Assembly (NCBI GenBank): GCA_963825265.1
Contig: CAWGSI010000005.1
Coordinates: forward strand, 347,556 to 411,555
Length of the DNA: 64,000 nucleotides
Origin: an uncultured Alphaproteobacteria bacterium
GTDB taxonomy: Bacteria; Pseudomonadota; Alphaproteobacteria; Rhizobiales; Xanthobacteraceae
Direction: 5' to 3'
Below are positions 1,229-31,488 of the stretch, one piece after another (within the stretch, counting starts at the first letter, position 1; the number at the start of each line of letters is the position of its first letter). The position numbers and the translations under genes were made by a program. Under the pieces are notes generated by a model. It made no database searches. It worked only from the letters and a program-made list of their open reading frames with translations, and was not told where the DNA came from.

Positions 1229-1404
1229 CGGCAACCGCGCATGACGCCTGCAATAGGTTCAGGAATTGCGATTTTGTTGGGCAACCGTGCGCATGTCCTT
1301 CATGCTATCGAATCACGAATGTGTTCATTTGATTCCGTGAAAAGAACACATTGGCGAAACATGTACGCAGCGTGCTTCCACCTCGGCGAATTGGGTGCTG
1401 CACT

Positions 1405-2001: not shown

Positions 2002-2020
2002 TTGCAAGCGTCCGGCTGCC

Positions 2021-3994: not shown

Positions 3995-4005
3995 CGCGCC
4001 TATCG

Positions 4006-5253: not shown

Positions 5254-6092
5254 TACAAAATCGCGTAGCGCAGCAATATCCAGACGAATTGCCGGCGGCG
5301 CAGCCGCACCGGCCTGCGCGGCGGCAGCCAGCCGCGGGCGAGCATCTGGTCGTACATCATGCGATAGGCCGTCGCCATAATGCGCGGCGTGCGCACCGTC
5401 CGGCGCGGGCTGCGCGCCATGATGGCCTCGGCCTCCGCGAAGTGCCGGCCGGCCACCGCGGCAACCGTCGCGCAAGCCTGGCCGATCGTCGGACTGGCCA
5501 GCACGGCCGCGGGCTCGCCCATGGCGATGCCGGCGCCGGCCAGCGCCTCGCGCGGCAGATAGAGGCGGCCGATGGCGGCGTCCTCGTCGAGGTCGCGCAA
5601 AATATTCGTCATTTGCAGCGCGCGCCCGAGATGATGCGCGAGCGCCAGCCCATCCTTCTTCTCCATGCCGAACACACAAACACTCAGCCGGCCCACCGCG
5701 CTGGCGACGCGGTCGCAATAGAGGTCGAACGTGGCGAAATCCGGTGCGCGGATGTCGGCAACGACGTCCATCTCCATGCCGTCGATGACGGCGAGGAAAT
5801 CTTCGCGTTGCAGATTGAAGTTGCGCGCGGCGCGCGCAAGCGCGCTTAAGCGCGGCGGCGGTGTGCTTGTGTAGAGCGCGCCAATGTCGGCGCGCCACTT
5901 CTGCAATTGTTCGAGACGCGCGTCGCGCGGACCGGCTTCGTCGGCGATGTCATCGACCTTGCGGCAGAACGAATAGATTTCGAACATCGCTTCGCGCTGC
6001 GCTTTCGGCATAATGCGCATGGCGAGATAGAATGAGCTGCCGGACGCACGCTGTTCGGCCGCCACGGTCGGTTCATCGGTCACAACCGTCAC
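5253..6092 (-). CDS. hpnD: Presqualene diphosphate synthase HpnD
   Basis: SGSSFYLAM, FCRKVDDIAD, YCDRVASAVG, LQMTNILRDLDEDA motifs; position within hpnCDE. Confidence 0.93.
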   Translation of the reverse strand: MTVVTDEPTVAAEQRASGSSFYLAMRIMPKAQREAMFEIYSFCRKVDDIADEAGPRDARLEQLQKWRADIGALYTSTPPPRLSALARAARNFNLQREDFLAVIDGMEMDVVADIRAPDFATFDLYCDRVASAVGRLSVCVFGMEKKDGLALAHHLGRALQMTNILRDLDEDAAIGRLYLPREALAGAGIAMGEPAAVLASPTIGQACATVAAVAGRHFAEAEAIMARSPRRTVRTPRIMATAYRMMYDQMLARGWLPPRRPVRLRRRQFVWILLRYAIL

Positions 6093-6961
6093 GGCCGCGC
6101 CACCGAAACGTGACGCTGACGGCCGGCGCGCCGCATGAGGCCCTTGAGCACGGCGAGCAGGCTGATGCCCGCGACGCCAAGCTTGCCGAGATGCACGCGC
6201 TCGCTCAACGGATCGCGCTGCGTGAGGATGCCGGCGATCCGTTGCGCCAGCGTCTGGATGACCGAAAGCTCGAGTGCGAGCCGCCAGTCCTCGACCATGC
6301 TTGGCAACGCGTCGCCCTCGTGCAGCAGGACCGCGGTGCGTTGCGCCAGCCCGGCGAGACAGCGCCGCAAATCGGGCGAGGCTTTGGCGGCGCTAAGCGC
6401 CTCGACGCCGAGGCCGCACGCGGCGAGCGCATCGAGCGGGATATAGACCCGGTCGAGATTGCGGTAGTCCGCCGCGCAATCCTGGATGTGATTGATGACC
6501 TGCAGCGCCGCGCAGGTGGCGTCGGACGCGGGCCAGGTGGCGCGGCTTTCCCCGTGCACGTCGAGCACGAAACGCCCGACCGGCATCGCGGAATAGGCGC
6601 AGTAACCCATGAGGTCGTCCCAGTCGCGGTAGCGCAGTTTGGTGGCGTCGAGCCGAAAGGCCTTGAGCAGATCCTGCGCATGCACAGGCGACATGGCGCG
6701 CTCGGCCAGCGCGCGGCGTAGCGCGACCGCCTGCGCGTTGCCATCTCCTGCGCCAAGCAAATCGGTTTCAAGACGGTCCAGCAGGCCGACCTTCTCCTGC
6801 GCCGATAGCGAGGGGTGGTCGGCGATGTCGTCGGCGGAGCGCACGAATTCGTAGAAAGCAAGAATCAGCGCGCGATGACGCGGCGCGATCAGCCACGACG
6901 CGACAGGAAAATTTTCGTCGCGATGGCCTTTGCCGGACCGGAATTCACTGGCATCCATCAT
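6089..6961 (-). CDS. hpnC: Hydroxysqualene synthase HpnC
   Basis: HRDENFPVAS, RSADDIADH, YCAYSAMPVGRFVL, LQVINHIQDC motifs; ATGA overlap with hpnB. Confidence 0.93.
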   Translation of the reverse strand: MMDASEFRSGKGHRDENFPVASWLIAPRHRALILAFYEFVRSADDIADHPSLSAQEKVGLLDRLETDLLGAGDGNAQAVALRRALAERAMSPVHAQDLLKAFRLDATKLRYRDWDDLMGYCAYSAMPVGRFVLDVHGESRATWPASDATCAALQVINHIQDCAADYRNLDRVYIPLDALAACGLGVEALSAAKASPDLRRCLAGLAQRTAVLLHEGDALPSMVEDWRLALELSVIQTLAQRIAGILTQRDPLSERVHLGKLGVAGISLLAVLKGLMRRAGRQRHVSVARP

Positions 6962-8103
6962 CGTACGCCGTTCACATTCGACTGCACGCGGCCTTTCCAG
7001 AGGCCGCCGCGTTTGCGGGCATATTGATAGGCGGAGTCGAGGGTAAAGGCCATGTAGGCAAACGCGATCGCCGGCAGAAAAGGTCCCCATAATGGCGACA
7101 ACCGGTAAAACCGCAGGATCGGCTGGAACGCGATTGCCATAATTGCCCAGGCGATGAGGCCGAGTATTTGTGCAAGGCCGTGGCCGAGCAGCGCCAGAAC
7201 GAGCGGAAGCAGATAGACGAGCGCCATGCCGGCTGTCGTTGCCGCGAGCAGCAGCGGCGAATAGCCAAGCTGCGCATAGGCCGAGCGCGCGACCATGCGC
7301 CGGATGTCCTGCACCGTCGCATAACCGCGGATGCTGCGTGCGCGTTGCGTCAAAGCGAGGCGGATTGGTCCCTGCGGCTTGAGGCTGCGCGCCAGCGCGC
7401 AATCGTCGATCAAGGCGCCGCGAATGGCCTCGATGCCGCCGGCCGCGACGAGCGCGTCGCGGCGCACCAGCATGCAGCCGCCGGCCGCCGCCGCGGCAGC
7501 GCGGTCTTTGCGGTTGACCCAGGCGAACGGGTAGAGCATCTGGAAGAAAAAGATGAAGGCCGGCACGAATGCGCGTTCGGCGAAGCTCTCGCAGCGCAAT
7601 TTGACCATCAGCGAATTAAGCACCAGTCCGTCGGCTTGCGCTTTTGACACCAGGCGCGTGAGCACGTCGCGGTCGTAGACGATGTCGGCGTCGGTGAAGA
7701 GCAGATAGGCCGGCTCAGCGTGCAGCGCGCGTTCGACGCCTTGCTGCATCGCCCACAATTTGCCGGTCCAGCCGGCCGGCAGCGCGGCGCCGGGCAGGAC
7801 GGTCAGTTTGTTCGGCGCGCCCGCCGCGGCGCGCCGCGCCACGTCCGCCGTGCCGTCGGTGCTTTGATCGTCCACCAGGATGACGGAAAACGCGCCGGGA
7901 TAATCCTGCGACAGCAGCGAGGCGACGGTCTGCCCCACGCTTTCGGCTTCGTCGCGCGCCGGGATGACGATCATGACCGAAGGCCATGTTTCGGGCGCCG
8001 GCCCGCCGTCCTCTCGCCCCCCCGCCACCCAAAAGCCGCCGCGCCCTGCAATCAGGTAAATCCAAACCGCGAGCGCGGCAGCGGCTAAGAGGTTCACCGC
8101 CAT
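6958..8103 (-). CDS. hpnB: Hopanoid glycosyltransferase HpnB (GT2)
   Basis: VIPARDE, VDDQSTDGT, WTGKLWAM, LLFTDADI, GALIDDCALA, RRMVARSAYAQL; directly upstream of hpnC. Confidence 0.88.
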   Translation of the reverse strand: MAVNLLAAAALAVWIYLIAGRGGFWVAGGREDGGPAPETWPSVMIVIPARDEAESVGQTVASLLSQDYPGAFSVILVDDQSTDGTADVARRAAAGAPNKLTVLPGAALPAGWTGKLWAMQQGVERALHAEPAYLLFTDADIVYDRDVLTRLVSKAQADGLVLNSLMVKLRCESFAERAFVPAFIFFFQMLYPFAWVNRKDRAAAAAAGGCMLVRRDALVAAGGIEAIRGALIDDCALARSLKPQGPIRLALTQRARSIRGYATVQDIRRMVARSAYAQLGYSPLLLAATTAGMALVYLLPLVLALLGHGLAQILGLIAWAIMAIAFQPILRFYRLSPLWGPFLPAIAFAYMAFTLDSAYQYARKRGGLWKGRVQSNVNGVR

Positions 8104-8301
8104 TGGACCGGAATATTCCTCGGATTGGACCACCCGGCGCTCCAGTCGAAGGAGACAGTGCGGGTTGCAAATAATCATGGCGGGTCCGGCGAGATTTTCC
8201 AAGGGCCGCGCGCGTCATCTCGGCCTATCGTAAATCAAGCCCGGACATAGCGATGAATCCGCGCTATTGAAGCGCTGATCTATCAGCGGCAGGAGCTGGC
8301 G

Positions 8302-9183
8302 ATGGCGGGCGTTGTCGGATTGATCGGGATCGGATTGATGGGCACAGCGCTGGCACGCCGCCTGCTCGACGCCGGATATCGTGTCGTCGGCTTCGACATC
8401 GCCCCGGCGCGGCGCGATGCACTCCTCGCCATGGGCGGCGAGCCGGCCGAATCCGTGGCGGAAGTCGCGGCTCGCTGCCGGCGCTATCTGATCGCCGTGA
8501 TGACGGTGGCCCAAGTCGAACAGGTGGTCGAAGGCAAAGGCGGGCTCATCGAGACCGGCGAGCCAAAGCATTCGCGCGTCGCCATGTGCACCGCGACCTG
8601 CGAGCCCGACCGCATCGAAGCGCTCGCCGCCCGCGCGGCCGCGCGTAACTTCACCTTTCTCGACACGCCGGTCTCCGGCACCAGTGGGCAGGTGCTGCAG
8701 GGCGACGGTTATGGACTGATTGCCGGCGACAAAGCCGCCGCCGCGGCCGCCGACGATATTCTGGGCGTGATCTATCCGCGCCGCCAGTACATCGGGCCGG
8801 CGGGAACCGCGACCAAGACCAAGCTTGCGATCAATCACATCCTGGGGCTCAACCGTGTGGCGCTCGCCGAGGGCCTGGTGTTTGCCGAACGGCTCGGCCT
8901 TGGCCTGCACGGCTTTCTTGAGGTAGCGCGCAAGTCGGCCGCCTATTCGCAGATCATGGACGTCAAGGGCGACAAGATGGTGACCGGCGACTTCTCGCCG
9001 GTTAGCAAGGTCAATCAGCACCACAAGGACTTCAACACGATCCTGAGCGAGGCGCGCAAGCGCGGCCAGCAATTGCCCTTCGCCTCGCTGCTGGTCGAAG
9101 TGCTCGAAGCCTGCGAGCGGCACGGCGACGCTGAGCGCGATAACGCGATTACCATCGAGGAGATCCGCCGCCGCAAGGCGTAG
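8302..9183 (+). CDS. NAD(P)-dependent beta-hydroxyacid dehydrogenase (3-hydroxyisobutyrate/6PGD family)
   Basis: GLIGIGLMG Rossmann motif, FLDTPVSG, catalytic Lys region ATKTKLAINHILG; RBS aggag. Confidence 0.85.
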   Translation: MAGVVGLIGIGLMGTALARRLLDAGYRVVGFDIAPARRDALLAMGGEPAESVAEVAARCRRYLIAVMTVAQVEQVVEGKGGLIETGEPKHSRVAMCTATCEPDRIEALAARAAARNFTFLDTPVSGTSGQVLQGDGYGLIAGDKAAAAAADDILGVIYPRRQYIGPAGTATKTKLAINHILGLNRVALAEGLVFAERLGLGLHGFLEVARKSAAYSQIMDVKGDKMVTGDFSPVSKVNQHHKDFNTILSEARKRGQQLPFASLLVEVLEACERHGDAERDNAITIEEIRRRKA

Positions 9184-9197
9184 CGCGGAGGCTCTGC

Positions 9198-9521
9198 TCA
9201 GCGCCCCTGATAGGCCGGCGTGCGCACGACCAGGCCGTCGAGCGCCTCCGTCACCTTGATCTGGCAGGCCAGCCGCGAGGTCGGTTTTACCTCGAAGGCG
9301 AAGTCGAGCATGTCCTCTTCCTCGCTCGACGGCGGGCCGACCGCCGGAAACCACTTCTCGTCCACGTGCACCAGGCAGGTCGCGCAGGTGCAGGAGCCGC
9401 CGCATTCGGCCACGATGCTGGTCACGTTATTGCGCTGCGCCGTCTCCATCACGGTCGAGCCGATTTCGGCCTCGACCGTGTGCACGGCGCCGTCATGTTC
9501 GATGTAAGTGATCTTCGGCAT
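9198..9521 (-). CDS. [2Fe-2S] ferredoxin, adrenodoxin/putidaredoxin type
   Basis: [12 protein letters not shown]...SRLACQI Cys pattern. Confidence 0.93.
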
Positions 9522-9527
9522 GAAAGA

Positions 9528-10601
<1,074 letters not shown>

Positions 10602-11507
10602 TCACGCCGACTGGCGCGCGATGCGAGTAGCGGGGACTGCGACGACGCGCAACAGCTCCGCCAGATTCTGTTCGGGTGTCTTGCCGGTGGTGGCGAGCAC
10701 GGCTTCCGCCTTGGCGTAAAGCGGTTCGCGGCTCTTGAGAATGGATACCAGATCCTCCATGGCGCGGGCATTGTTGGCCATCGGCCGCATGTCGCCTTGC
10801 GCCATCACCCGCTTCATATGTTCCTCCGGCTCGGCGCGCACCCAGACCGTGAAGCACGAGGCCAGCAGCAATTCAAGCGTGCCCGGTTCGGTGACGATGC
10901 TGCCGCTGGTGGCGATGACGAAATTAGTGTGCCGGCGCAACACGTCGTCGAGCGCCTCGCGCTCGGCCCGGCGGAAAGTTTCCTGGCCGAACATGTCGAA
11001 GATTTCGCTCAAATTGGCGCCGCTACGCCGCTCGATCTCGCGGTCGAGTTCAATGAAGGGTACGTCGAGACGTTCCGCCAGCAGGCGGCCGAGCGTGGAC
11101 TTGCCGCCGCCGCGCAGGCCGATCAGCGCGATTCGCCGGCGGTCCTCGGAAGGCGAGGAGAAATGCTCGGTAACGAGCTTGCGGGCTTCTAGCAGCCTTT
11201 CCGGCGGCAGCCGCTCGAGGAATTGCGTCAACAGCACCAGATCGAGCGGCGGCTCGGCGCCCTCGTGCACAAGCTGGGTGACCGGCAAGCCGATTGCGCG
11301 CGCGATCCGCCGCAGCAGCACGATCGAGATATTGCCGCGTCCGACTTCGAGTTGCGCCAGATAGCGTTCGGAAACTTTCGCATGCTGCGCCAAGGCCTTG
11401 CGCGTGATGCCGCGCTGATGTCGCAAGGTGCGCACGCGTCCGCCGAGCCGGTGCAAGTAGGCGTCGGCGGCGTGGCTTGTGGTTGGCTTGGCGCGGATTG
11501 GTTTCAT
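10602..11507 (-). CDS. boxR: BoxR/BzdR-family regulator (XRE HTH plus shikimate-kinase-like benzoyl-CoA sensor)
   Basis: HTH VSERYLAQLEVGRGNISI, P-loop GLRGGGKSTLG, RVMAQGDMRPM; divergent from boxC. Confidence 0.9.
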   Translation of the reverse strand: MKPIRAKPTTSHAADAYLHRLGGRVRTLRHQRGITRKALAQHAKVSERYLAQLEVGRGNISIVLLRRIARAIGLPVTQLVHEGAEPPLDLVLLTQFLERLPPERLLEARKLVTEHFSSPSEDRRRIALIGLRGGGKSTLGRLLAERLDVPFIELDREIERRSGANLSEIFDMFGQETFRRAEREALDDVLRRHTNFVIATSGSIVTEPGTLELLLASCFTVWVRAEPEEHMKRVMAQGDMRPMANNARAMEDLVSILKSREPLYAKAEAVLATTGKTPEQNLAELLRVVAVPATRIARQSA

Positions 11508-11522
11508 CTCTATCGGCTAACA

Positions 11523-11536
11523 TGCATTATAATGCG
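11523..11536. promoter_or_regulatory. Putative BoxR operator 1 (TGCA-N6-TGCA type) overlapping TATAAT on both strands
   Basis: TGCATTATAATGCG, 15 bp upstream of the boxR ATG. BzdR/BoxR are known to bind TGCA-containing palindromes. Confidence 0.6.
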
Positions 11537-11604
11537 AGGCAATAGGGAGCAGTTGTCCAGCTTTATTGGCCCTATTGTATGGCGCTCGCCGAAGTGCTAA
11601 TGAT

Positions 11605-11620
11605 ATGAAAAATAATGCAT
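11605..11620. promoter_or_regulatory. Putative BoxR operator 2
   Basis: ATGAAAAATAATGCAT has the same TGCA-N6-TGCA spacing with one mismatch; about 50 bp upstream of boxC. Confidence 0.45.
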
Positions 11621-11667
11621 ACAGGGAGAAGGCCACCGGGCGCTTTTTGTCCGGGGCCAGATTGTTC

Positions 11668-13323
11668 ATGCAAATCATCGATTTCCAGACCGATCCGTCG
11701 CGCTACCGCCATTGGCGCATCGAATGCGATGGCGACGTCGCCTATTTGATCATGGATGTCGATCAGGCGGGCGGGCTGTTCGACGGCTATGAGCTCAAGC
11801 TCAACTCCTACGATCTCGGCGTCGATATCGAACTCAACGACGCGGTGCAGCGGCTGCGCTTCGAGCATCCGGAGGTGCGCGCCGTCGTCATAAAGTCCGG
11901 CAAGGACAACGTATTCTGCGCCGGCGCCAATATCCGCATGCTGGGCAAGTCGACGCATGCGCAGAAGGTGAATTTTTGCAAATTCACCAATGAGACGCGA
12001 CTCGCCATCGAGGACGCGAGCGAGAATTCCAAGCAGAACTACATTTGCGCGATCAATGGCAATGCCGCGGGCGGCGGCTACGAGCTGGCACTCGCCGCCG
12101 ACCACATCATGCTGGTGGACGACCGCCGCTCAGCGGTGGCGCTGCCGGAGACGCCGCTGCTCGCCGTGCTGCCGGGCACCGGCGGGCTCACCCGCGTCAC
12201 AGACAAGCGCAAGGTGCGGCGCGACCGCGCCGATGTGTTCTGCTCGATTGAGGAGGGCATCCGCGGCGCCAAAGCCGTCGAGTGGCGGCTGGTCGATGAA
12301 GTCGTGCCCAATTCCAAGTGGAAAGACACGGTGGCCGCGCGTGCCCACGAAATCGCCGCGCGCTCCGACCGGCCTAAAGACGTCAAAGGCATCGCGCTGA
12401 CCCCGCTCGCGCGCAAGATCGAGGCCGACCGGGTGAGCTATTCGCATGTCGAGGTCGAGATCGACCGCGCGCGCGGGCTTGCCACCATCACTGTGCGCGG
12501 TCCCACGCAAGCGGTGCCGGCGACGGTCGAGGTCGCGCACGCGCTCGGCGACAAATTCTGGCCGCTCGCCGTCGCTCGCGATCTGGAAGACGCCGTGCTG
12601 CATCTGCGCGCCAACGAGCAATCGATCGGCGTCCTGCTGCTGCGCACCGAAGGCAACGCGCTGGCAGTGCTGGATTACGACGCATTTCTCAGCCAATACG
12701 ATAGTGACTGGTTGATGCGCGAAATCAGGCACTACCTCAAACGCACGCTCAAGCGCATCGATGTAACGCCGAGAAGCTTCATTGCGTTGATTGAACCCGG
12801 TTCCTGCTTTGCCGGCACTCTGGCCGAACTCGCTTTTGCCGCCGACCGGTCTTTCATGCTGGTCGGTGCGCGCGAAGGCGACAACCGTGAGCCTGCCGCA
12901 ATCGTCCTCGGCCATGTCAATTTTGGTCTCTATCCGATGGGCAATGGTTTGACGCGGTTGCAGACGCGTTTTCTCGGCGAGCCGGACACGCTGAAAACCG
13001 CGCAGAGCAAAATCGGCATTGCGTTGGAAGCCGAGGCGGCCGACGAACTTGGCCTTATCACCGCGGCTTACGAGAGTTTCGATTGGGACGACGAATTGCG
13101 AGTCATGCTGGAGGAGCGCGCGAGCTTCTCGCCCGACGCCATGACCGGCATGGAAGCCAATCTGCGTTTCGCCGGCCCGGAGACCATGGAGACCAAGATT
13201 TTCGGACGGCTGACCGCCTGGCAGAACTGGATATTCCAGCGGCCGAACGCGATCGGCGAGCAGGGCGCGCTGAAACTCTACGGCAGCGGCGTGTCGCCGA
13301 CCTTCAATAAGGAAAGGGTGTAA
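11668..13323 (+). CDS. boxC: 2,3-epoxybenzoyl-CoA dihydrolase BoxC
   Basis: IDFQTDPSRYRHW, LKLNSYDLGVDIELNDAVQRLRFEHPEV, FGRLTAWQNWIFQRPNA; two crotonase domains. Confidence 0.96.
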   Translation: MQIIDFQTDPSRYRHWRIECDGDVAYLIMDVDQAGGLFDGYELKLNSYDLGVDIELNDAVQRLRFEHPEVRAVVIKSGKDNVFCAGANIRMLGKSTHAQKVNFCKFTNETRLAIEDASENSKQNYICAINGNAAGGGYELALAADHIMLVDDRRSAVALPETPLLAVLPGTGGLTRVTDKRKVRRDRADVFCSIEEGIRGAKAVEWRLVDEVVPNSKWKDTVAARAHEIAARSDRPKDVKGIALTPLARKIEADRVSYSHVEVEIDRARGLATITVRGPTQAVPATVEVAHALGDKFWPLAVARDLEDAVLHLRANEQSIGVLLLRTEGNALAVLDYDAFLSQYDSDWLMREIRHYLKRTLKRIDVTPRSFIALIEPGSCFAGTLAELAFAADRSFMLVGAREGDNREPAAIVLGHVNFGLYPMGNGLTRLQTRFLGEPDTLKTAQSKIGIALEAEAADELGLITAAYESFDWDDELRVMLEERASFSPDAMTGMEANLRFAGPETMETKIFGRLTAWQNWIFQRPNAIGEQGALKLYGSGVSPTFNKERV

Positions 13324-21954: not shown

Positions 21955-23703
21955 ATGTCGTCCAGCTTCGCCACCATCCCGAAGACCGCGCCCTTCGCCG
22001 AGGAAGAAATCGACCTGCTCAACCGCGTGGTCGGTCCGGCCAACGCGCTGCAGCGCGCCTGGCTCGCCGGCTTCCTCGCCGGTGTCGAGTCGGTCACCGG
22101 GCAGCCGCAGCCTTCGGCGCCGGCCAAGGCCGCCGAGCCGATCACCATCGTCTATGCCAGCAAGTCCGGCAATTGCGAGAAGCTCGCCAACGATCTGGCC
22201 AAGGCCGCGCGCAAGAACGGCCTCAAGCCGAATTTGATCGACATGGCGGATCTCGATCTCGCCGACCTCACCGCAGCCAAGCGCCTGGTGTTCATCGCGG
22301 CCACGTGGGGCGAGGGCGATCCGCCGGCGCGCGCCGTGCGCGCCTATGGCGAATTGATGGGCGGGGGCGCCCCGCGCCTCGACGGCGTCGAGTTCGGCGT
22401 GCTGGCGCTCGGCGACACGGCCTATGCGGAATTCTGCGCCATCGGCAAGAAGATCGACGAACGGCTTGCTGCGCTTGGCGGCAAACGCGTGGTCGAGCGC
22501 GTCGACTGCGATCTCGATTTTGCCGAGCCGTCGTCGAAATGGATCGGCGACGCGCTGAAGGTCCTCACCCCGCCCGATGCCAACCGCGGGCGCGTCATCG
22601 AAGTCGATTTCGGCAAGCCAGCGGCTGCGCCCAACACCGACATTGTCGAGGCGGAGATTTCCGAGCACGTCAACCTGAATTCCTCGCGCTCGAACAAGGA
22701 AACCATCCATCTCGCGCTGACCTTCGACGGCGCGGCGCCGGCCTATGAACCGGGCGACTCGCTCGATCTCTACGCCGAGAATGATCCGGCCTATGTCGAC
22801 GAGCTGCTGAAGCTCGCGGGATTGGCGGGCGACGACAAATTACGCGCCGAACTCATCAAATCGCGCGACGTGACCACGTTGTCGCTCAAGACCGTAGAAA
22901 CCTATGCAACGCAGACCGGCCATCAATACGTCAAGGCGCTGCTGGCGGACGGGCAGGCGAAGGAATGGATCGTCGGCCGTCAGTTCATCGATCTGGTCGC
23001 CATGTTCCCGATCGCGTTGACCGCCGATCATTTGCGCGCGGTGACGCGTCCTTTGGCGCCGCGCGCCTATTCGATTGCCTCGTCGCGCCGTGAAGTCGGC
23101 GACGAAGCGCATCTGCTGATCTCGGCGGTGCGCTACGACAGCCACGGCCGCGCCCGCAAGGGAGTCGCCTCCAATTACGCCGCCGAGCGGCTCAAGCGCG
23201 GCGGCCGCGTGCGCGTCAAGCTCAAACCCAACAAGCATTTCGCGTTGCCCGTCGCCGACAAGGATATCATCATGGTCGGCCCCGGTACCGGCGTCGCCCC
23301 GTTCCGCGCCTTCGTGCAGGAGCGCCGCGCCACCAAGGCCGCCGGGAGAAGCTGGCTGTTCTTCGGCGACCGCCAGTTCACGCATGATTTTCTCTACCAG
23401 CTCGACTGGCAGGATGCGCTCAAGGACGGATCGCTCACCCGCATGGATGTCGCCTTCTCGCGCGATACGCCCGAGAAGATCTACGTGCAGCACAAGATAT
23501 GGGACAAGCGCCGCGATTTGATCGAATGGCTCGACGGCGGCGCCAGCTTCTACGTCTGCGGCGACGCCAAAAACATGGCGAAAGACGTGCGCGCCGCGCT
23601 GGTGCGTGCTTACGCCGACGTGAAAGGGCTGGCCCCCGAGGCCGCCGAGCAGGCCGTCGCGAGCCTGGAGCGCGACAAGCGCTATCTGACGGATACATAC
23701 TAA
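21955..23703 (+). CDS. cysJ: Sulfite reductase flavoprotein CysJ-like (flavodoxin + FAD + NADPH domains)
   Basis: YASKSGN, ATWGEGDPP, LALGDTAY, RAYSIASS, MVGPGTGVAPFRAF, YVCGDAKNMAKDV, RYLTDTY. Confidence 0.9.
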   Translation: MSSSFATIPKTAPFAEEEIDLLNRVVGPANALQRAWLAGFLAGVESVTGQPQPSAPAKAAEPITIVYASKSGNCEKLANDLAKAARKNGLKPNLIDMADLDLADLTAAKRLVFIAATWGEGDPPARAVRAYGELMGGGAPRLDGVEFGVLALGDTAYAEFCAIGKKIDERLAALGGKRVVERVDCDLDFAEPSSKWIGDALKVLTPPDANRGRVIEVDFGKPAAAPNTDIVEAEISEHVNLNSSRSNKETIHLALTFDGAAPAYEPGDSLDLYAENDPAYVDELLKLAGLAGDDKLRAELIKSRDVTTLSLKTVETYATQTGHQYVKALLADGQAKEWIVGRQFIDLVAMFPIALTADHLRAVTRPLAPRAYSIASSRREVGDEAHLLISAVRYDSHGRARKGVASNYAAERLKRGGRVRVKLKPNKHFALPVADKDIIMVGPGTGVAPFRAFVQERRATKAAGRSWLFFGDRQFTHDFLYQLDWQDALKDGSLTRMDVAFSRDTPEKIYVQHKIWDKRRDLIEWLDGGASFYVCGDAKNMAKDVRAALVRAYADVKGLAPEAAEQAVASLERDKRYLTDTY

Positions 23704-23727
23704 TGGGCGGCGCGGCGCGCTATTTCA

Positions 23728-23754
23728 CTCTCCCCGCTGCGCGGGGCGAGGGGA
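23728..23754. repeat. Short CTCTCCCCGC..GCGGGG.GAGGG-type hairpin repeat
   Basis: ctctccccgctgcgcggggcgagggga lies immediately before the AAGGAGG RBS of cysI; resembles a common alphaproteobacterial intergenic repeat. Confidence 0.4.
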
Positions 23755-23764
23755 AGGAGGCATC

Positions 23765-25480
23765 ATGACCGACGAAGTCTCGCGCAACGAGCGCATCAAA
23801 GAGGCGAGCGATTACCTGCGCGGCACGCTCACCGAAGGCTTAGCCGAGGAAATCACCGGCGCGATCGTCGAGGACGACCAGCAACTGGTGAAATTCCACG
23901 GCATATATCTGCAGGACGACCGGGATCTCCGCCCCGAGCGCACGCGCAAGAAGATGGAGAAGGCCTTCGCCTTCATGATCCGCGTGCGCATTCCGGGCGG
24001 CGTGCTGTCGCCGCAGCAATGGCTCGCGCTCGACCAGGTGGCGCGCGACTACGGCAACCACACCATGCGGTTGACCACACGGCAAACCGTGCAGTTGCAC
24101 GGCGTGATCAAGTCCAATCTCAAAGCGACGTTGAAGAAAATCGACGCGGCGCTGCTCAACTCGATCGCCGCTTGCGGCGACGTCAACCGCAACGTCATGT
24201 GCGGCGCCAATCTCGAGCAAAGCGCGGCGCATGTGGCGGCGCTCGATCTGACGCGCGCAATCTCCGACCACCTCACGCCGCAGACGCCGGCCTACCGCGA
24301 GATCTGGCTCGACGGCGAAAAGATCGCCGGCGGCGAAGATGAGGTGGTCGAGCCGATCTACGGCAAGACTTACCTGCCGCGCAAATTCAAGATCGTGGTG
24401 GCGGTGCCCCCGTCGAACGACGTCGACATCTTCGCGCATGATCTCGGCTACATCGCCATCCTCGACGATAAAGGCGGCGTGGCGGGCTGGAACGTAACGG
24501 TCGGCGGCGGCATGGGCATGACCCATGGCGAGGAGGACACCTATCCGCGCACCGCCGAAGTGATGGGACTTTGCAAGACCGAAGATGCGGTGAAGATCGC
24601 GGAAGCGGTGGTCACGGTGCAACGCGACTGGGGCGACCGGGCAAACCGCAAGCACGCGCGGCTGAAATACACCATCGAGGACCGCGGGCTCGACGCTTTT
24701 CGCGCCGAGGTCGAGAAGCGCGCCGGCGTGACGCTTGAGGCGGCGAGGCCGTTCACTTTCACCTCGACCGGCGACCGCTACGGCTGGAGCGACGGCGCCG
24801 AGGGGTGCAGCCATCTCACGCTGTTCGTGCAGAACGGGCGCTTGCTCGATAACGCCAATGCGAAGCAAATTTCGGCTTTGCGGCAGATCGCGCAGAAGCA
24901 CGACGGCAATTTCCGCATCACGCCCAATCAGAACCTGATCGTCGCCAATATCCCGAAGGAACGGCAGTCGGAAATTCACTGGCTCGCCAAGGAAGCCGGA
25001 CTGCTGGCGCCCTGGTCGGGCCTGCGCCGCAATTCCATGGCCTGCGTCGCGCTGCCGACGTGTGGGCTCGCGCTGGCCGAAAGCGAACGCTACATGCCCG
25101 ACCTGCTCGGTGTGCTCGACGAGCGGCTTAGTGTGCATGGGCTCGCCGCCGACGACATCGCCATCCGCATGACCGGCTGCCCGAACGGCTGCGCGCGGCC
25201 TTATCTCGCCGAGATCGGCTTGGTCGGCAAAGGACCGGGACGATACAACTTATATCTCGGTGCGGCCTTCGACGGCTCGCGGCTCAACAAGCTCTATGGC
25301 GAGGATTTCGATCACGTCGGCATCGTCGCCGCGCTCGACCCGATCTTTGCCGCCTATGCCGCCGGCCGGCAGAAGGGCGAGCGCTTCGGCGATTTCACCA
25401 TCCGCGCCGGCTTCGTCGCGGCAACCGGCAACGGCCGCGACTTCCACGCCAATGTGGGCAACCGGGCAGGACGCCGGTGA
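23765..25480 (+). CDS. cysI: Assimilatory sulfite reductase hemoprotein CysI
   Basis: NERIKEASDYLRGT, KFHGIYLQDDRD, ACGDVNRN, YLPRKFKI, CVALPTCGLALAESERY, MTGCPNGCARP siroheme/[4Fe-4S] ligands. Confidence 0.95.
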   Translation: MTDEVSRNERIKEASDYLRGTLTEGLAEEITGAIVEDDQQLVKFHGIYLQDDRDLRPERTRKKMEKAFAFMIRVRIPGGVLSPQQWLALDQVARDYGNHTMRLTTRQTVQLHGVIKSNLKATLKKIDAALLNSIAACGDVNRNVMCGANLEQSAAHVAALDLTRAISDHLTPQTPAYREIWLDGEKIAGGEDEVVEPIYGKTYLPRKFKIVVAVPPSNDVDIFAHDLGYIAILDDKGGVAGWNVTVGGGMGMTHGEEDTYPRTAEVMGLCKTEDAVKIAEAVVTVQRDWGDRANRKHARLKYTIEDRGLDAFRAEVEKRAGVTLEAARPFTFTSTGDRYGWSDGAEGCSHLTLFVQNGRLLDNANAKQISALRQIAQKHDGNFRITPNQNLIVANIPKERQSEIHWLAKEAGLLAPWSGLRRNSMACVALPTCGLALAESERYMPDLLGVLDERLSVHGLAADDIAIRMTGCPNGCARPYLAEIGLVGKGPGRYNLYLGAAFDGSRLNKLYGEDFDHVGIVAALDPIFAAYAAGRQKGERFGDFTIRAGFVAATGNGRDFHANVGNRAGRR

Positions 25481-25606
25481 GCGCTGTGCGGCGGCCCGGC
25501 GAAGCATTGCTCAGTTTTTCGACCGACTTTGCTGCTTTGCGAGGCAAATGCCTCGACAAAGTTCCCCTGTTGATAATTAATCCAAGAATATCAGCGGCTT
25601 CTGAGC

Positions 25607-25622
25607 TGGCACACTCCTTGCT
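25607..25622 (+). promoter_or_regulatory. sigma54 (-24/-12) promoter of the FNT-nirA operon
   Basis: TGGCACACTCCTTGCT with exact GG-N10-GC spacing. A TGC-N11-GCA site at 25530-25546 could be an NtrC-type enhancer. Confidence 0.8.
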
Positions 25623-25705
25623 GCCTTGCAGCATAGAAGGAGCAGCGGCCGGCCGGATTGTGCTGCAGAGCGATCTCGGCGACCGCCATAACAGGGAGTC
25701 GAGAT

Positions 25706-26536
25706 ATGGATTACGTGAAGCCAGCGGACGTCGCGAGCGCCATGGTGGAAACCGGGCGCCGCAAATTGGATTTAGCGCCAGTCGATCTCGTCATCCGCGG
25801 CGCGCTCGCCGGAAGCATTCTGGCGGCGGCCACCAGCCTCGCCATCACCGGCGCGGTGCAGACCGGGCAGCCGCTGGTCGGCGCGCTTATCTTTCCGGTC
25901 GGCTTGATCCTCATCGTCTTGCTCGGGCTCGATCTGGTCACCGGCGCTTTCGGCCTGGTGCCGCTGCCCTGGATGGAGCGCGACGCCAGCACGCCGCACA
26001 TGCTCGCGAATTTCGGCTGGATATTCCTCGGCAACATGATCGGCAGCGTCGTCTATGGCGGCCTGCTGGCGATTGCGCTGACCAATTTCGGCACCGCCGC
26101 GCCGGCCGGCGTCGCCGCCAAGATCATCGCCATCGCGCAAGCCAAGACCACCGGCTACGAGGCCATCGGTCTTGCCGGCATGATCACAGTCTTCGTCAAG
26201 GCAATTTTGTGCAACTGGATGGTCTGCCTCGCCATCGTCGCGGCCATGACCACCAATTCGACCATCGGCAAGATCGCCTGCGCCTATATGCCGGTGTTCA
26301 TCTTTTTCGCCCAAGGCTTCGAGCACACGGTGGTGAACATGTTCATCATCCCGACCGGCATGATGATGGGCGCCAAGATCACGGTCGCGCAATGGTGGCT
26401 GTGGAACCAGATCCCGGTCACGCTCGGCAATCTGGTCGGCGGCTTCATCTTCACCGGGCTTGCGATCTACATCACGCACAAGCCGCGCAAGCTCTCGCCG
26501 CCGCTGGCGATGACGACGCAGGTGCCGGCGGAATGA
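25706..26536 (+). CDS. Formate/nitrite transporter (FNT) family channel, NirC/cyanate-channel-like
   Basis: FPVGLILIVLLGLDLVTG, GNMIGS, KAILCNWMVCLA, FEHTVVNMF, VTLGNLVGG. Confidence 0.9.
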   Translation: MDYVKPADVASAMVETGRRKLDLAPVDLVIRGALAGSILAAATSLAITGAVQTGQPLVGALIFPVGLILIVLLGLDLVTGAFGLVPLPWMERDASTPHMLANFGWIFLGNMIGSVVYGGLLAIALTNFGTAAPAGVAAKIIAIAQAKTTGYEAIGLAGMITVFVKAILCNWMVCLAIVAAMTTNSTIGKIACAYMPVFIFFAQGFEHTVVNMFIIPTGMMMGAKITVAQWWLWNQIPVTLGNLVGGFIFTGLAIYITHKPRKLSPPLAMTTQVPAE

Positions 26537-28368
26537 CGACGCAAGCCGGCAGCGATCTCAAGCTGGCTGGCGCAACGGCAACCGGCGACTTCGAGCCCGA
26601 ACAGAAACGCTATCTGGAGGGCTTCGCCGCCGGTTTGCAGATCGCCAAGACGGCGAAAGGGTTCGCCGGCTCGGCCGGAAGCCTGCCGGGGGCGGTTGCC
26701 GCCCCCGCGCCGGAGCCGGTCGGCCCCGACGCCGCCGCGTTCAAGGCGCAAGACCGCGTGCTCAAGGCCGGCGGCAAGCTGTCGGACCCCGAGAAATTCA
26801 AGCGCGAGCAGCATCCGTTCGACACTTACGAGCGGCTCAAGGCGCACGCCGCCAAGAACGAATATCCCAAACCGCCCGACAATTTCCGCTGGCGCTTCTT
26901 TGGCCTGTTCTATGTGGCGCCGAACCAGAACTCCTACATGTGCCGGCTGCGCATGCCGAACGGCATTCTCAAAGCCGCGCAGTTCGCGGGCGTTGCCGAT
27001 CTCGCCGAGCGCTATGGCGGCGGCTATGCGCACGTGACGACGCGCGCCAATCTGCAGGTGCGCGAGATCGAGGCGAAGAACGCCGTCAATATGATCGAGG
27101 CGGTGCTCGACCTCGGCCTGTGCTCGCGCGGCTCCGGCGCCGACAATATTCGCAACGTCACCGGCGGGCCTACCGCCGGCATCGACCCGCAGGAATTGAT
27201 CGACACACGTCCCTATACGCGCGAGTGGCACTTCCACATTCTCAATGACCGCTCGCTCTACGGTCTGCCGCGCAAGTTCAACGTCGGCTTCGACGGCGGC
27301 GGCATTATCCCGGTGCTGGAGGATACCAACGACATCGGCTTCCAGGCGGTGCAGGTGAAGGACGGCTTCGGGCTCGAAGCGGACGTTTGGTTCCGGCTCT
27401 GCCTGGGCGGGCTCACCGGGCACCGCAGTTTCGCCGGCGATACCGGCGTGCTGGTCAAGCCCGCCGACGCCACGCTCGTTGCCGACGCGGTGGTGCGCGT
27501 GTTCATCGATCACGGCGACCGCACCGACCGCACCAAGGCACGGCTCAAATATGTCCTCGACAAATTCGGCGTTGAAAAATTCCTCGGCCTGATGGAGGAG
27601 AAGCTCGGCCGCAAGCTCGACCGCGCCGTGCCGGGCGCGATTGAGCCCAGACCGCCGTTCTCGCGCACCGCGCATCTCGGCATTCACCCGCAGAGGCAGG
27701 AAGGCCTCAACTGGATCGGCGTCGTGGTGCCGGTCGGCCGCCTGACGGTCGCGCAGATGAAGGGCCTCGCCGGTATCGCGCGCGATTTGGGCGACGGCGA
27801 TATCAGGCTCACCGTGTGGCAGAATTTGCTGATCTCCGGCGTGCTGTCGCGCAAGCTCGATGAGGCGCAAGCGCGGATCGAAGGGCTCGGTTTGGCGATC
27901 GAAACCAACGCGATCCGCGCCGGGCTCGTTGCCTGCACCGGCAACACGGGCTGCAAATTCGCCGCTTCCGACACCAAGCGGCACGCCGAAGAGATTGCCG
28001 CATGGTGCGAGACGAGGCTGGCGCTCGACACGCCGGTCAATATCCATCTCACCGGCTGCCATCATTCCTGCGCGCAGCATTTTGTCAGTGAGATTGGGTT
28101 GCTCGCCTGCAAGGTCGAGGTCGGCGAGGATGCCGATCCGGTCGAGGGCTACCACGTGCTGATCGGCGGCGGCTTCGGGCCTTACGCGGCGCTCGGCCGC
28201 GAGCTTTATCGCGACGTGAAGGCGCAGGATACGCCGAGAGCAATCGAGCGCGTGCTCAAGACTTACCTGATGCACCGCGAGTCGCCGAAGGAAAGCTTCA
28301 TCGACTTTGCGCGCCGGCATGAGATCGACGCGCTCAAATCGATGGTTGAACTGGAGGCGGTGGAATGA
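26533..28368 (+). CDS. nirA: NirA-family siroheme nitrite (or sulfite) reductase
   Basis: FRWRFFGLFYV, TTRANLQVR, GADNIRN, LPRKFNVGF, VACTGNTGCKFA, HLTGCHHSCAQH; ATGA overlap with the FNT gene, downstream of a sigma54 promoter. Confidence 0.85.
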   Translation: MTTQAGSDLKLAGATATGDFEPEQKRYLEGFAAGLQIAKTAKGFAGSAGSLPGAVAAPAPEPVGPDAAAFKAQDRVLKAGGKLSDPEKFKREQHPFDTYERLKAHAAKNEYPKPPDNFRWRFFGLFYVAPNQNSYMCRLRMPNGILKAAQFAGVADLAERYGGGYAHVTTRANLQVREIEAKNAVNMIEAVLDLGLCSRGSGADNIRNVTGGPTAGIDPQELIDTRPYTREWHFHILNDRSLYGLPRKFNVGFDGGGIIPVLEDTNDIGFQAVQVKDGFGLEADVWFRLCLGGLTGHRSFAGDTGVLVKPADATLVADAVVRVFIDHGDRTDRTKARLKYVLDKFGVEKFLGLMEEKLGRKLDRAVPGAIEPRPPFSRTAHLGIHPQRQEGLNWIGVVVPVGRLTVAQMKGLAGIARDLGDGDIRLTVWQNLLISGVLSRKLDEAQARIEGLGLAIETNAIRAGLVACTGNTGCKFAASDTKRHAEEIAAWCETRLALDTPVNIHLTGCHHSCAQHFVSEIGLLACKVEVGEDADPVEGYHVLIGGGFGPYAALGRELYRDVKAQDTPRAIERVLKTYLMHRESPKESFIDFARRHEIDALKSMVELEAVE

Positions 28369-29953
28369 GCATCACGCCGCGCATCCCCTCGCTGATCCCG
28401 GATTCGGCGCCGTTCACGCCGGAGCAGCGCACGTGGTTGAACGGCCTGTTCGCGGGCATGATCTCGCTCGAGGAGAGCGTGACGCCGCTGACGAACGCCG
28501 AGGCTGCCGCGCTCTTGCCCGGGGTCGTCGCGCCCGCGGAAGAAGACGACGGCGCGCCCTGGCACGACCCGGCGATGCCGCTCCCCGACCGCATGAAGCT
28601 CGCCGACGGCAAGCCGCTGCCGCGCCGCATGATGGCGGCGATGGCGCAGCAGGATTGCAGTCAGTGCGGTTATAACTGCAAGGACTACGCCGATGCGCTG
28701 TTCACCAAAAAGGAAGAGCGGCTGAACCTGTGCGTGCCGGGCGGCAAAGACACCGCCCGCATGTTGAAGAATCTCTATGCGGAGCTCGGCGCTGCGCCGC
28801 CGACGGCGAAGGCGGAGACGGTGCCCGCGCCGGTTTCCGCGCCGGGCCGCTCGCGCGACAATCCGGTCACCGCCACTTTCCTCTCGCGCCGTCGCCTCAA
28901 CAAAGAAGGCTCGCAAAAGGAAACCTGGCATATCGAATTCGATCTGGCCGAATGCGGGCTGGATTATGTGGTTGGCGACAGTTTCGGTGTTTACCCGGCC
29001 AACGAGCCCGCATTGGTCGAGGCGGTGATCGCCGCGCTTGACGCGCCGGCGGATTTTCCGATCGGCGGTAGAACTTTGCGCGAGGCGCTCACCGACGGCG
29101 TCTCGCTGTCGCCGGCGCCGGACATGCTGTTCCAGCTCATTTCGTACCTGACCGGCGGCGACCGCAAGAAAAAAGCCCTGGCTTTGGCCGCCGGGCAGGA
29201 CCCGGACGGCGATGCGGCGACGCTCGACGTGCTGGCGGCGCTGCAGAAATTTCCCGGTATCCGGCCCGATCCGGAAGCCTTCATCGAGGCGCTCGATACC
29301 TTGCAGCCGCGCGTCTATTCGATCTCCTCCTCGCTCAAGGCCAATCCCGGCCGCGTCTCGCTCACGGTCGACGCGGTGCGCTACCAAGTGGAAAAACGCA
29401 CAAGGCTCGGCGTTGCCTCGACTTTCCTGGCGGGCCGGGTTTCGCCGGGCGACAAGATCAGGGTCTATGTGCAGAAGGCGCAGCACTTCGCGCTGCCCGC
29501 CGATCCCGGCAAGCCGATCATCATGATCGGACCCGGCACGGGGCTGGCGCCGTTCCGCGCCTTTCTGCAGGAGCGCCAGGCGACCGACGCGCCCGGCCCC
29601 AATTGGCTTTATTTCGGCCACCAGCGCAGCGATTACGATTTCTTCTACGAAGACGAGCTCAAGGAAATGCGCTCGTCCGGCCTGCTGACGCGGCTGACGC
29701 TCGCCTGGTCGCGCGACGGCAAGGACAAGATCTACGTGCAGCACCGCATGCGCGACGACGGCCGCGACCTCTGGGAGTGGCTGAGCAAAGGCGCGCATCT
29801 CTATGTCTGCGGCGACGCGCTGCGCATGGCCAAGGACGTCGAACGCGCGCTGATCGACGTCGTGGCCGAGCATGGCAAGCGCTCCCGGAAGACGCCGCGC
29901 GCTACGTCGCCGAGTTGAAGAAGAACGACCGCTACCAGTCGGACGTGTATTAG
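28365..29953 (+). pseudogene. CysJ-like FAD/NAD(P)H reductase with an N-terminal [4Fe-4S] (RnfB-type FeS) domain; apparent 1-nt deletion near the C-terminus
   Basis: QQDCSQCGYNCKDYA...LCVPGG, RVYSISSS, GPGTGLAPFRAF, YVCGDALRMAKDV. The conserved tail PEDAARYVAELKKNDRYQSDVY is in another frame after the CCC at 29884-29886. May be a sequencing error. Confidence 0.85.
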
Positions 29954-30021: not shown

Positions 30022-31488
30022 GTGGACATCATTCGCACCCCTTCCGAAACCCGTTCGGGCAAAATGGCGCCGCTGGCGCGGCTGCCGGTGTTTCTTGCGC
30101 TCGAGGGAAAACGCGCGGTCATTGCCGGCGGCAGCGCCGCGGCGGCCTGGAAGGCGGAGCTGCTGTCGGCCGCGGGCGCGCGGGTGGAGGTCTACGCCGA
30201 GACGCCGTCCGACGAGCTGTTGCAGATAGCCGGCGATCCGCCGCGCGGCCAAATCGTTGTGACCCGGCGCGCCTGGGCCGCGGCCGACTTGCGCGGCGCG
30301 GCGGTCGCCATCGGCGCCTTCGAGGATGACGAAAGCGCCGCCGCTTTCGCTGCCGCGGCGCGCGCGGCCGGCGTTCCGGTCAATGTGATCGATCGACCGG
30401 CTTTCTGCGATTTCGCCTTCGGCGCCATCGTGAACCGTTCTCCCTTGGTCATCGGCATTTCCACCGACGGCGCGGCGCCGGTGTTCGCACAAGCCATCAG
30501 GGCCAAGCTCGAAGCGCTGCTGCCGAAAGGCTTTGCCGATTGGGCGGCTGCCGCCGCACGCTGGCGCGCGGCGGTGAAGACGTCGGGCCTGCCGTTTTCC
30601 GGCCGGCGCAAGTTCTGGCAACTATTCACGGCGCACGCGGTCAAGAATCCCGACAGCGAACCGACGCAGACCGATTTCGACCGCTTCGTCGCCGAGGTGC
30701 AAGAGCTCGGCGCGGCAATCGGCAACGGCTCGGTTACTCTGGTCGGCGCCGGCCCCGGCGATGCCGAATTGCTGACGCTGCGCGCCGTGCGGGCTTTGCA
30801 ATCGGCCGATGTGATCCTGTTCGACGATCTGGTGTCGCGCGACGTGCTCGACTTCGCGCGCCGCGAGGCGCGCAAGATGCTGGTCGGCAAGACCGGCTTC
30901 GGGCCGTCGTGCAAGCAAGAAGACATCAACGCGCTGATGGTGAGCCTCGCCCGCCAGGGCAAGCGTGTGGTGCGGCTTAAAGGCGGCGACCCGCTGATTT
31001 TCGGTCGTGCGGCCGAGGAGATCGCGGCCTGCGAGGCGGCGTCGATCGCGGTCGACGTGGTGCCCGGCATCACAGCGGCGCAGGGCGCGGCGGCCAAGCT
31101 CGGCCTACCGCTGACCGACCGCAAGCACGCGCGCCGGCTGCAATACGTCACCGGGCACGTACACAACGGCGCGCTGCCGGCTGATCTCGATTGGCAGAGC
31201 CTCGCCGACCCGGCGACCACCACGGCGATCTACATGCCGATCCGCACGCTCACCGCGCTGGTCGAGAAAGCCACCGCCGAAGGCCTCGATCCGCGCACGC
31301 CCGCCTTGGCGATTGCGCGCGCCACGCGGCCCGACCAGGCGGTGGTTTCGGCTCCGATCGGCGAACTGCCGGCGCGGCTGGCGCAGGCCGATTTGCCCGG
31401 TCCGGTGCTGGTGATGCTGGGACGCGTGTTCGGCGACGATGCGGGCGCGCAATCGCGCATCACGCGCGCGGATCAGAAAGCCGGCTGA
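30022..31488 (+). CDS. cysG: Siroheme synthase CysG
   Basis: LPVFLALEGKRAVIAGG, VNVIDRPAFCDF, VGAGPGDAELLTLRA, VVRLKGGDPLIFGR, VVPGITAA. Confidence 0.95.
   Translation: MDIIRTPSETRSGKMAPLARLPVFLALEGKRAVIAGGSAAAAWKAELLSAAGARVEVYAETPSDELLQIAGDPPRGQIVVTRRAWAAADLRGAAVAIGAFEDDESAAAFAAAARAAGVPVNVIDRPAFCDFAFGAIVNRSPLVIGISTDGAAPVFAQAIRAKLEALLPKGFADWAAAAARWRAAVKTSGLPFSGRRKFWQLFTAHAVKNPDSEPTQTDFDRFVAEVQELGAAIGNGSVTLVGAGPGDAELLTLRAVRALQSADVILFDDLVSRDVLDFARREARKMLVGKTGFGPSCKQEDINALMVSLARQGKRVVRLKGGDPLIFGRAAEEIAACEAASIAVDVVPGITAAQGAAAKLGLPLTDRKHARRLQYVTGHVHNGALPADLDWQSLADPATTTAIYMPIRTLTALVEKATAEGLDPRTPALAIARATRPDQAVVSAPIGELPARLAQADLPGPVLVMLGRVFGDDAGAQSRITRADQKAG

Follow-up and report, generated by a model that had tools for sequence, protein, structure and literature searches.

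The 64,000-nucleotide (nt) stretch of an uncultured Alphaproteobacteria bacterium of the Xanthobacteraceae that we analyzed (GenBank assembly GCA_963825265.1, contig CAWGSI010000005.1, positions 347,556 to 411,555; hereafter the window) contains a string of genes between positions 21955 and 31488 that all lie on the forward strand in the order cysJ-cysI-FNT-nirA-FeS-flavoprotein-cysG (Table 1). Our subject is a short motif, Q-x2-[W/Y]-L-x-G-[F/L]-x2-G, that recurs near the N-terminus of 3 proteins encoded in this string: the reductase CysJ, the ferredoxin-type nitrite reductase NirA, and the Fe-S-containing flavoprotein (FeS-flavoprotein) encoded next to NirA. A sequence-only reading of the window had placed such shared helix peptides at positions 22051 (CysJ), about 26596 (NirA), and about 28419 (flavoprotein), and there they are: The copies read QRAWLAGFLAG from residue 33 of CysJ, PEQKRYLEGFAAG in NirA, and PEQRTWLNGLFAG in the flavoprotein.

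Table 1. Genes and N-terminal features of the sulfite and nitrite reductase string in the window (aa, amino acids).
Feature	Position	Strand	Evidence and remarks
cysJ-type diflavin reductase, 582 aa	21955..23703	+	N-terminal two-helix module; Pfam PF00258, PF00667, PF00175 (flavodoxin, FAD, NAD(P))
CysJ N-terminal module	21991..22098	+	APFAEEEIDLLNRVV (helix 1), turn, QRAWLAGFLAG (helix 2; Q33 at nt 22051); motif profile A1 37.3 bits
cysI, NADPH-sulfite reductase hemoprotein, 571 aa	23765..25480	+	NF010029 810 bits, TIGR02041 791 bits, both above cut-off
FNT (formate/nitrite-family) channel	25703..26536 (start approximate)	+	PF01226 211 bits
NirA-family sirohaem/[4Fe-4S] nitrite reductase, 611 aa	26533..28368	+	NF007126 967 bits (cut-off 523)
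NirA N-terminal helix, residues 22-43	26596..26661	+	EQKRYLEGFAAG, Q24 at nt 26602; followed by a low-confidence linker to residue ~66
FeS-flavoprotein ("sulfite reductase subunit alpha", NF004859), 517 aa as read	28365..29918	+	832 bits (cut-off 432); PF00667, PF00175
Flavoprotein N-terminal helix, residues 19-33	28419..28463	+	APFTPEQRTWLNGLFAG, Q21 at nt 28425
RnfB-like Cys4 Fe-S motif QQDCSQCGYNC...NLC in the flavoprotein	28653..28739	+	PF04060 19.8 bits (below the cut-off of 23); TIGR01944 rnfB 35 bits
cysG sirohaem synthase	30022..31488	+	NF007922 518 bits

A degenerate pattern built from the 3 peptides themselves matched 4 times in the 8.87 million residues of the six-frame translation of this 4.43-Mb genome, and 3 of these matches are the N-termini in the window. 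Since this pattern was derived from the same data that it described, we added tests with single-family hidden Markov models (HMMs) and with profile-profile scoring. HMMs were built from the flavoprotein only, CysJ only, NirA only, or flavoprotein and CysJ copies together and run over the 75,570 six-frame open reading frames (ORFs) of the genome. The CysJ and flavoprotein models retrieved each other's protein at rank 2 with 15 to 20 bits, and the NirA-only model retrieved neither CysJ nor the flavoprotein. Because single-family HMMs missed NirA, ungapped profile-profile scoring over the N-terminal 50 to 57 or so alignment columns was used instead, with 2000 column shuffles for each comparison as null. 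NirA and the flavoprotein scored 20.0 bits against each other (null mean 8.1, standard deviation 1.4, maximum 14.6), NirA and CysJ 19.8 bits (null maximum 13.9), and the flavoprotein and CysJ 28.8 bits (null maximum 14.0). The 3 helices are related, with the NirA copy as the most diverged one, because these scores exceed all shuffles and the best alignment of each pair falls into the register of the motif. A 24-column profile of the motif gave 37 to 50 bits for the window proteins and no more than 16 bits for anything else in the genome.

How far this arrangement extends beyond the window was assessed in a survey of 401 Pseudomonadota genomes. Members of the NirA family NF007126 are present in 17 of them, comprising Hyphomicrobiales (at least nine genera) and one other alphaproteobacterial family, and full-length NF004859 flavoproteins were found in the same 17 genomes and nowhere else among the 401, with the flavoprotein gene directly downstream of nirA in every case. 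All 17 NirA proteins match the NF007126 profile from position 2 to 4 onward and display D-F-x2-[E/D]-Q-K-[R/N]-Y-L-[E/G]-G-F-x2-G a few residues past the start codon; their partners share the N-terminal consensus A-P-F-x3-Q-R-x-W-L-[N/S]-G-[F/Y/L]-F-A-[G/A]. The NirA of the window matches profile positions 3 to 591 from residue 16 onward and thereby includes the N-terminal 110 or so profile positions. Other NirA-like matches in the survey start only at profile position 106 to 118 or so and therefore lack the NF007126 N-terminus together with the helix.

The same pair is adjacent on a Planctomycetales chromosome (CP043547, locus L099), where NirA (NF007126, 915 bits) carries STEQKNYLQGF and the flavoprotein (NF004859, 710 bits) carries APFDQEQRAWLNGFFAG. 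With the 17 pairs from Pseudomonadota, this gives the motif on 18 of 18 NirA proteins and 18 of 18 flavoproteins, and flavoprotein relatives named Polyangiaceae or Deltaproteobacteria have the helix as well. The sequence-only reading had considered a helix on NirA unusual and asked for its conservation in orthologues. Its presence in all 17 survey members and in the Planctomycetales protein makes it no local oddity, and the helix is a hallmark of the NF007126 family. On CP043547, nitrate-transporter-like ABC genes lie on one side of the pair and a molybdopterin nitrate-reductase-like gene on the other, and no FNT gene lies upstream of nirA. The region from 1154 to 13296 of this locus is a compact nitrate-assimilation cluster that comprises the ABC transporter genes, nirA, the FeS-flavoprotein gene, the molybdopterin nitrate-reductase-like gene, and a gene for a NirB-N-like FAD protein.

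Within each family the helix is near-invariant, and between families it is specific (QKRYLEGF in NirA versus QRxWLNGFFAG in the flavoprotein). Residues Q24, K25, Y27, L28, G30, F31, and G34 are invariant in an alignment of 32 NirA sequences, as are A15, P16, F17, Q21, R22, W24, L25, G27, F29, and A30 in an alignment of 17 flavoproteins. The partner helices vary too little to show covariation, and one locus (L013) breaks the sole visible pattern. On a helical wheel, the conserved positions -4, 0, +3, +4, +7, +10, and +11 (relative to the glutamine) fall within an arc of about 100 degrees beside G(+6)-x3-G(+10), which to our own reading resembles a helix-helix packing face. In the AlphaFold2 model of NirA (32 sequences; mean predicted local distance difference test score [pLDDT] 83.5), the helix spans residues 22 to 43 and is followed by a loose chain to residue 66 and a confident body from residue 67. 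The flavoprotein model (17 sequences; mean pLDDT 72.3) contains a helix from residue 19 to 33 with a pLDDT of about 70, a low-confidence linker up to residue 72 or so, an Fe-S region (residues 73 to 143), and the FNR half from residue 168. These models suggest for both proteins a detached N-terminal helix on a loose linker, as described for the flavoprotein of E. coli sulfite reductase (SiRFP, the CysJ protein).

For SiRFP, a preprint from the Stroupe laboratory showed that residues 1 to 52 are necessary and sufficient to form an ultra-stable octamer, that this 52-residue peptide also oligomerizes SUMO, and that a combined substitution of Gln22, Tyr39, Phe40, and Gln47 breaks the octamer (10.64898/2026.04.08.717228). 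The E. coli CysJ peptide that the sequence-only reading had cited proved right, as it can be read in an enterobacterial CysJ (L093) whose numbering fits these 4 residues and places Tyr39/Phe40 as the two residues after the invariant glycine of the motif. The equivalent positions read GFL in the window CysJ, GLF in the flavoprotein (GFF or GYF in orthologues), and G-F-[A/S/T/V] with a tyrosine in place of the tryptophan in NirA, so that NirA keeps the Tyr39 position and has a small residue at that of Phe40.

The N-termini of CysJ proteins themselves come in two forms, a two-helix form (enterobacterial and alphaproteobacterial; loci L088-L098) to which the window CysJ belongs (motif at residues 33 to 43, flavodoxin from residue 65) and a one-helix form similar to the N-terminus of the FeS-flavoprotein. 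The latter is found in beta- and gammaproteobacteria (loci L064-L066 and L068) as PF-x3-Q-[KR]-x-WL-x-G-[FY]-[FL]-x-G-L, for example PFNxDQKxWLAGFFSGL; these short-form proteins keep the flavodoxin domain, and their genomes yielded no other protein with the motif. The lead-in of the one-helix form (LLPxxAPF) and helix 1 of the two-helix form are alike (15.4 bits, null maximum 14.2), and this likeness suggests that the helix was duplicated internally. We also considered a split hairpin in which NirA would contribute the equivalent of CysJ helix 1 and the flavoprotein that of helix 2. This idea was rejected: NirA scored only 8.0 bits against helix 1 (p of about 0.01) compared to 19.8 bits against helix 2, and the resemblance to CysJ helix 1 lies instead in the lead-in of the flavoprotein (LIPxxAPF), with 15.4 bits. 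As a separate observation, the window CysJ falls below the cut-offs of both curated equivalog models (TIGR01931, 563 versus 668 bits; NF008197, 458 versus 838 bits). It probably works like CysJ yet stands outside the curated equivalog, because its flavodoxin/FAD/NAD architecture is as expected and cysI is adjacent.

The FeS-flavoprotein is built differently. No flavodoxin domain was found in it by Pfam and curated family models, and a reading of this second flavoprotein as a diflavin reductase was ruled out by an RnfB-like Cys4 Fe-S domain at the place where a flavodoxin would be; the 4 cysteines (C98, C101, C105, and C123) are invariant among 17 aligned orthologues. Positions 6 to 519 of the NF004859 profile are matched, including the N-terminal helix and the Cys4 region within profile positions 1 to 150, and the last 20 or so are lost to a 1-base frameshift at approximately 29884/29885, where the window has TC-CCG and relatives have TCA or TCT before CCG. 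The frame as read ends with KRSRKTPRATSPS at position 29918, and the +2 frame continues with PEDAARYVAELKKNDRYQSDVY to 29953, which fits the C-terminus conserved in all 16 orthologues. A single base has been lost here, either in the assembly or in the strain; contigs of close relatives from three soil metagenome runs have one extra base after position 29884.

The obvious system for comparison is E. coli sulfite reductase (CysJ8-CysI4), which likewise consists of a CysJ-family NADPH/FAD reductase and a sirohaem/[4Fe-4S] hemoprotein encoded adjacently, and whose reductase likewise starts with a Q-x2-W-[LV]-x-G-[YF]-[FL]-x-G helix, with Tyr39/Phe40 inside the motif, followed by a flexible tether. 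In contrast to this enzyme, the reductase of the pair studied here contains an RnfB-like Fe-S domain in place of flavodoxin/FMN, there is one helix rather than a helix-turn-helix, the substrate is most likely nitrite, and the hemoprotein itself carries the helix. The E. coli hemoprotein binds the FNR domain of SiRFP with its own N-terminal 80 residues (PMC11195156), and NirA is without this docking region: alignments with CysI models and PDB chains begin only at NirA residue 134 to 245 or so, equivalent to residue 79 and beyond of CysI. An architecture unlike CysJ8-CysI4, as the sequence-only reading had proposed, is therefore reasonable, and the assembly logic would differ because NirA lacks a counterpart of the docking segment.

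Ferredoxin-dependent nitrite reductases of plants and cyanobacteria are usually described as monomers supplied by free ferredoxin. Their catalytic body is like that of the window NirA (PDB 3B0G and 2AKJ; NF007125), with the same cysteine ligands and two NIR_SIR repeats, and the window protein resembles the plant enzymes from residue 104 or so and aligns to tobacco nitrite reductase with 252 bits from residue 111 or so onward. Comparable bacterial NirA matches are without the first 105 to 117 or so profile positions, the helix among them. A closer relation is NirA of Bradyrhizobium, which belongs to the same NF007126 family and has both the helix and the downstream flavoprotein; the protein of locus L002 shares 100% identity with B. 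daqingense NirA and 91% with that of B. diazoefficiens. Bradyrhizobium needs this protein (bll4571, in the nasTS-nirA cluster) to grow on nitrate or nitrite (Cabrera et al. 2016, PMC4724949), and that study mentions neither the gene for the flavoprotein downstream nor an N-terminal helix. One UniRef name of the Bradyrhizobium protein begins with "NAD(P)H-dependent nitrite reductase cata...", and the pairing has therefore already reached annotation. A literature search for bll4570 yielded one unrelated mention, and no paper describing a helix on NirA was found.

Taken together, we consider it on balance probable that NirA and the FeS-flavoprotein form a tethered, self-contained two-subunit NAD(P)H-dependent assimilatory nitrite reductase in which the helices join electron donor and acceptor. 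The strongest argument for this reading is that a ferredoxin-type NirA has the helix only where the next gene encodes a helix-bearing reductase. The donor would be the NF004859 flavoprotein, passing electrons from NAD(P)H via FAD in its FNR-type half to the RnfB-like [4Fe-4S] domain that sits where CysJ has its flavodoxin, and the acceptor would be NirA with its own [4Fe-4S] cluster and sirohaem. Each subunit starts with a predicted helix of about 20 residues (F-x3-Q-[KR]-x-[WY]-L-x-G-F-x2-G-L), homologous to helix 2 of the E. coli SiRFP peptide, followed by a flexible linker rich in Ala, Pro, and Gly. If the NirA and flavoprotein helices pack as a mixed helical bundle, these tethers could keep reductase and hemoprotein at high local concentration and allow the Fe-S domain to shuttle between the FAD and the side of NirA where ferredoxin docks, so that the FeS-flavoprotein would stand in for free ferredoxin plus FNR. 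In this scheme, hetero-assembly, stoichiometry, and electron path are inferred. More tentatively, and with somewhat less conviction than we grant the pair itself, the CysJ-type helix may be a portable hetero-assembly tag that was copied onto a ferredoxin-type nitrite reductase, resulting in a mixed-bundle core with the catalytic domains on flexible tethers.

Several findings weigh against a tethered NAD(P)H-dependent pair. The NirA copy scores no more than 5.5 bits with the flavoprotein HMM, is not retrieved by models built from flavoprotein or CysJ copies alone, and is diverged, with tyrosine for tryptophan and Ala, Ser, Thr, or Val at the Phe40-equivalent second residue after the invariant glycine. 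In the AlphaFold2 model, residues 1 to 57 of NirA, including the helix, have a pLDDT below 50. The helix-turn-helix of the SiRFP peptide is present in the window CysJ, whereas NirA and the flavoprotein are each predicted to have a single helix, and octamer formation is therefore not simply transferable to these two proteins. The frameshift removes the conserved C-terminal GRYQxDVY from the flavoprotein as assembled and leaves a short out-of-frame tail. The Bradyrhizobium NirA has been called putatively ferredoxin-dependent, a dependence that was itself not examined in that work (PMC4724949). Finally, a search of this genome (91% complete) for an assimilatory nitrate reductase found none, the best NasC-like match being a formate dehydrogenase (G000 C14:322960-324939). 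Direct assimilation of nitrite is the simplest reading for this organism, because no such nitrate reductase was found and the FNT channel gene is joined to nirA.

The helices might also act within each protein rather than between them, with a CysJ-like oligomer of the flavoprotein and a separate NirA oligomer that meet by transient ferredoxin-type docking of the Fe-S domain. Such separate homo-oligomers fit the data equally well as mutual binding of the helices, given that the E. coli peptide is a homo-oligomerization tag and that a near-invariant yet family-specific helix, missed in NirA by single-family HMMs, is found here. However, this account gives no reason why a normally monomeric NirA should have the helix only beside a helix-bearing reductase (17 of 17 pairs and the Planctomycetales pair), and all 3 helix families share one alignment register; we judge it unlikely overall, if a serious contender. 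Rather improbable in our view is that no bundle forms at all and that the NirA helix instead docks onto a globular part of the flavoprotein (its FNR or Fe-S domain), binds another partner, or serves as an amphipathic anchor of NirA to the membrane or the FNT channel. Docking would parallel the E. coli hemoprotein, whose N-terminus rather than a bundle contacts the SiRFP FNR domain (PMC11195156), anchoring would suit the translational coupling of nirA to the FNT gene, and the helix does have one aromatic and hydrophobic face. Yet what the NirA helix resembles is the N-terminal helix of the reductases and not the N-terminus of CysI, the Planctomycetales cluster has no FNT gene ahead of nirA, and E. 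coli SiRFP, which has this motif too, has been described as an octamer that is soluble.

Mixing of all 3 helix-bearing proteins in this organism, such that a CysJ octamer would also serve NirA or the FeS-flavoprotein would also serve CysI, seems least probable. The genes do lie in a single co-oriented string, and the CysJ helix is nearer to that of the flavoprotein (28.8 bits) than the NirA helix is. A motif-bearing CysJ is nevertheless encoded in just 6 of the 17 pair-bearing genomes, so that the cross-talk with CysJ that the sequence-only reading had considered possible finds no support as a general feature: It is not a property of the family because the other 11 genomes have only two copies of the motif, those on NirA and the flavoprotein. 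In addition, CysJ has two helices here and NirA and the flavoprotein one each, and CysI retains its own N-terminal docking region (NF010029 is matched from residue 3).

Beyond these families, the motif seems to have few carriers. In the 401 genomes, the motif profile matched NirA, the flavoprotein, and CysJ-type proteins along with weak partial matches of approximately 22 to 23 bits; the three loci inspected among the latter encode histidine kinases at two (TPEQRRYLEMA) and a different protein at one (ADWLEGFAAGL), and we judged them to be chance matches. Among 1.84 billion representative proteins, a 30-column profile had 1058 matches at E <= 0.001. Among the best 150 of these, most of which are short metagenome fragments, 97 are of the flavoprotein or short-CysJ type, 49 of the NirA type, 3 of the two-helix CysJ type, and 1 is a tandem. 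The internal (non-N-terminal) matches that we inspected turned out to be frameshifted or over-extended metagenome ORFs in which the NirA C-terminus runs into the flavoprotein N-terminus or upstream sequence is read through. The tandem (P0181, 483 aa, from one Logan contig) has a NirA-type helix, FTGTQKRFLEGLMTG, and 25 residues further on a flavoprotein-type helix, APFDQEQRAWLNGFLAG, ahead of an FNR half without the Fe-S motif. We rejected it as a Rosetta-stone fusion and treated it as a one-off, as 0 of 77 relatives have such a tandem; it may be a deletion that joined the start of nirA to the flavoprotein gene, or a misassembly.

Several details of the locus complete this picture. The stop codon of the FNT gene and the start codon of nirA overlap as ATGA, and the flavoprotein gene starts with a 4-nt overlap with the nirA stop. 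The true start of nirA is the ATG at 26533 and not a GTG at 25477: The long ORF from the latter was dismissed as an artefact of GC-rich sequence, with an upstream frame of Arg/His-rich nonsense over the real FNT gene. The cysI product matches neither the degenerate helix pattern nor the motif profile. The closest relatives of the window NirA carry the name Pseudolabrys. A single cysG is present in a string that holds both sulfite reductase genes (cysJ and cysI) and the nitrite reductase pair.

The pairing of helices is a property of the family and not unique to the window. How SiRFP assembles and to what purpose has been open since the 1970s, and that its peptide suffices for the octamer was shown only in the 2026 preprint; a widespread natural pair with a helix-bearing hemoprotein would, if our reading is true, offer a second and simpler test case for this assembly and a natural experiment on why sulfite reductase is alpha8-beta4. 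As a short tag of natural origin, the helix could also serve to tether redox partners. Two annotations would need correction: A dedicated NAD(P)H-linked donor for the "ferredoxin-dependent NirA" of Bradyrhizobium and its relatives is probably encoded by the neighboring gene, and "sulfite reductase subunit alpha" would be a misnomer for this donor flavoprotein. For the family itself, the pair would mark a route from a ferredoxin-dependent enzyme to a self-contained NAD(P)H enzyme that was taken in at least Pseudomonadota and Planctomycetota.

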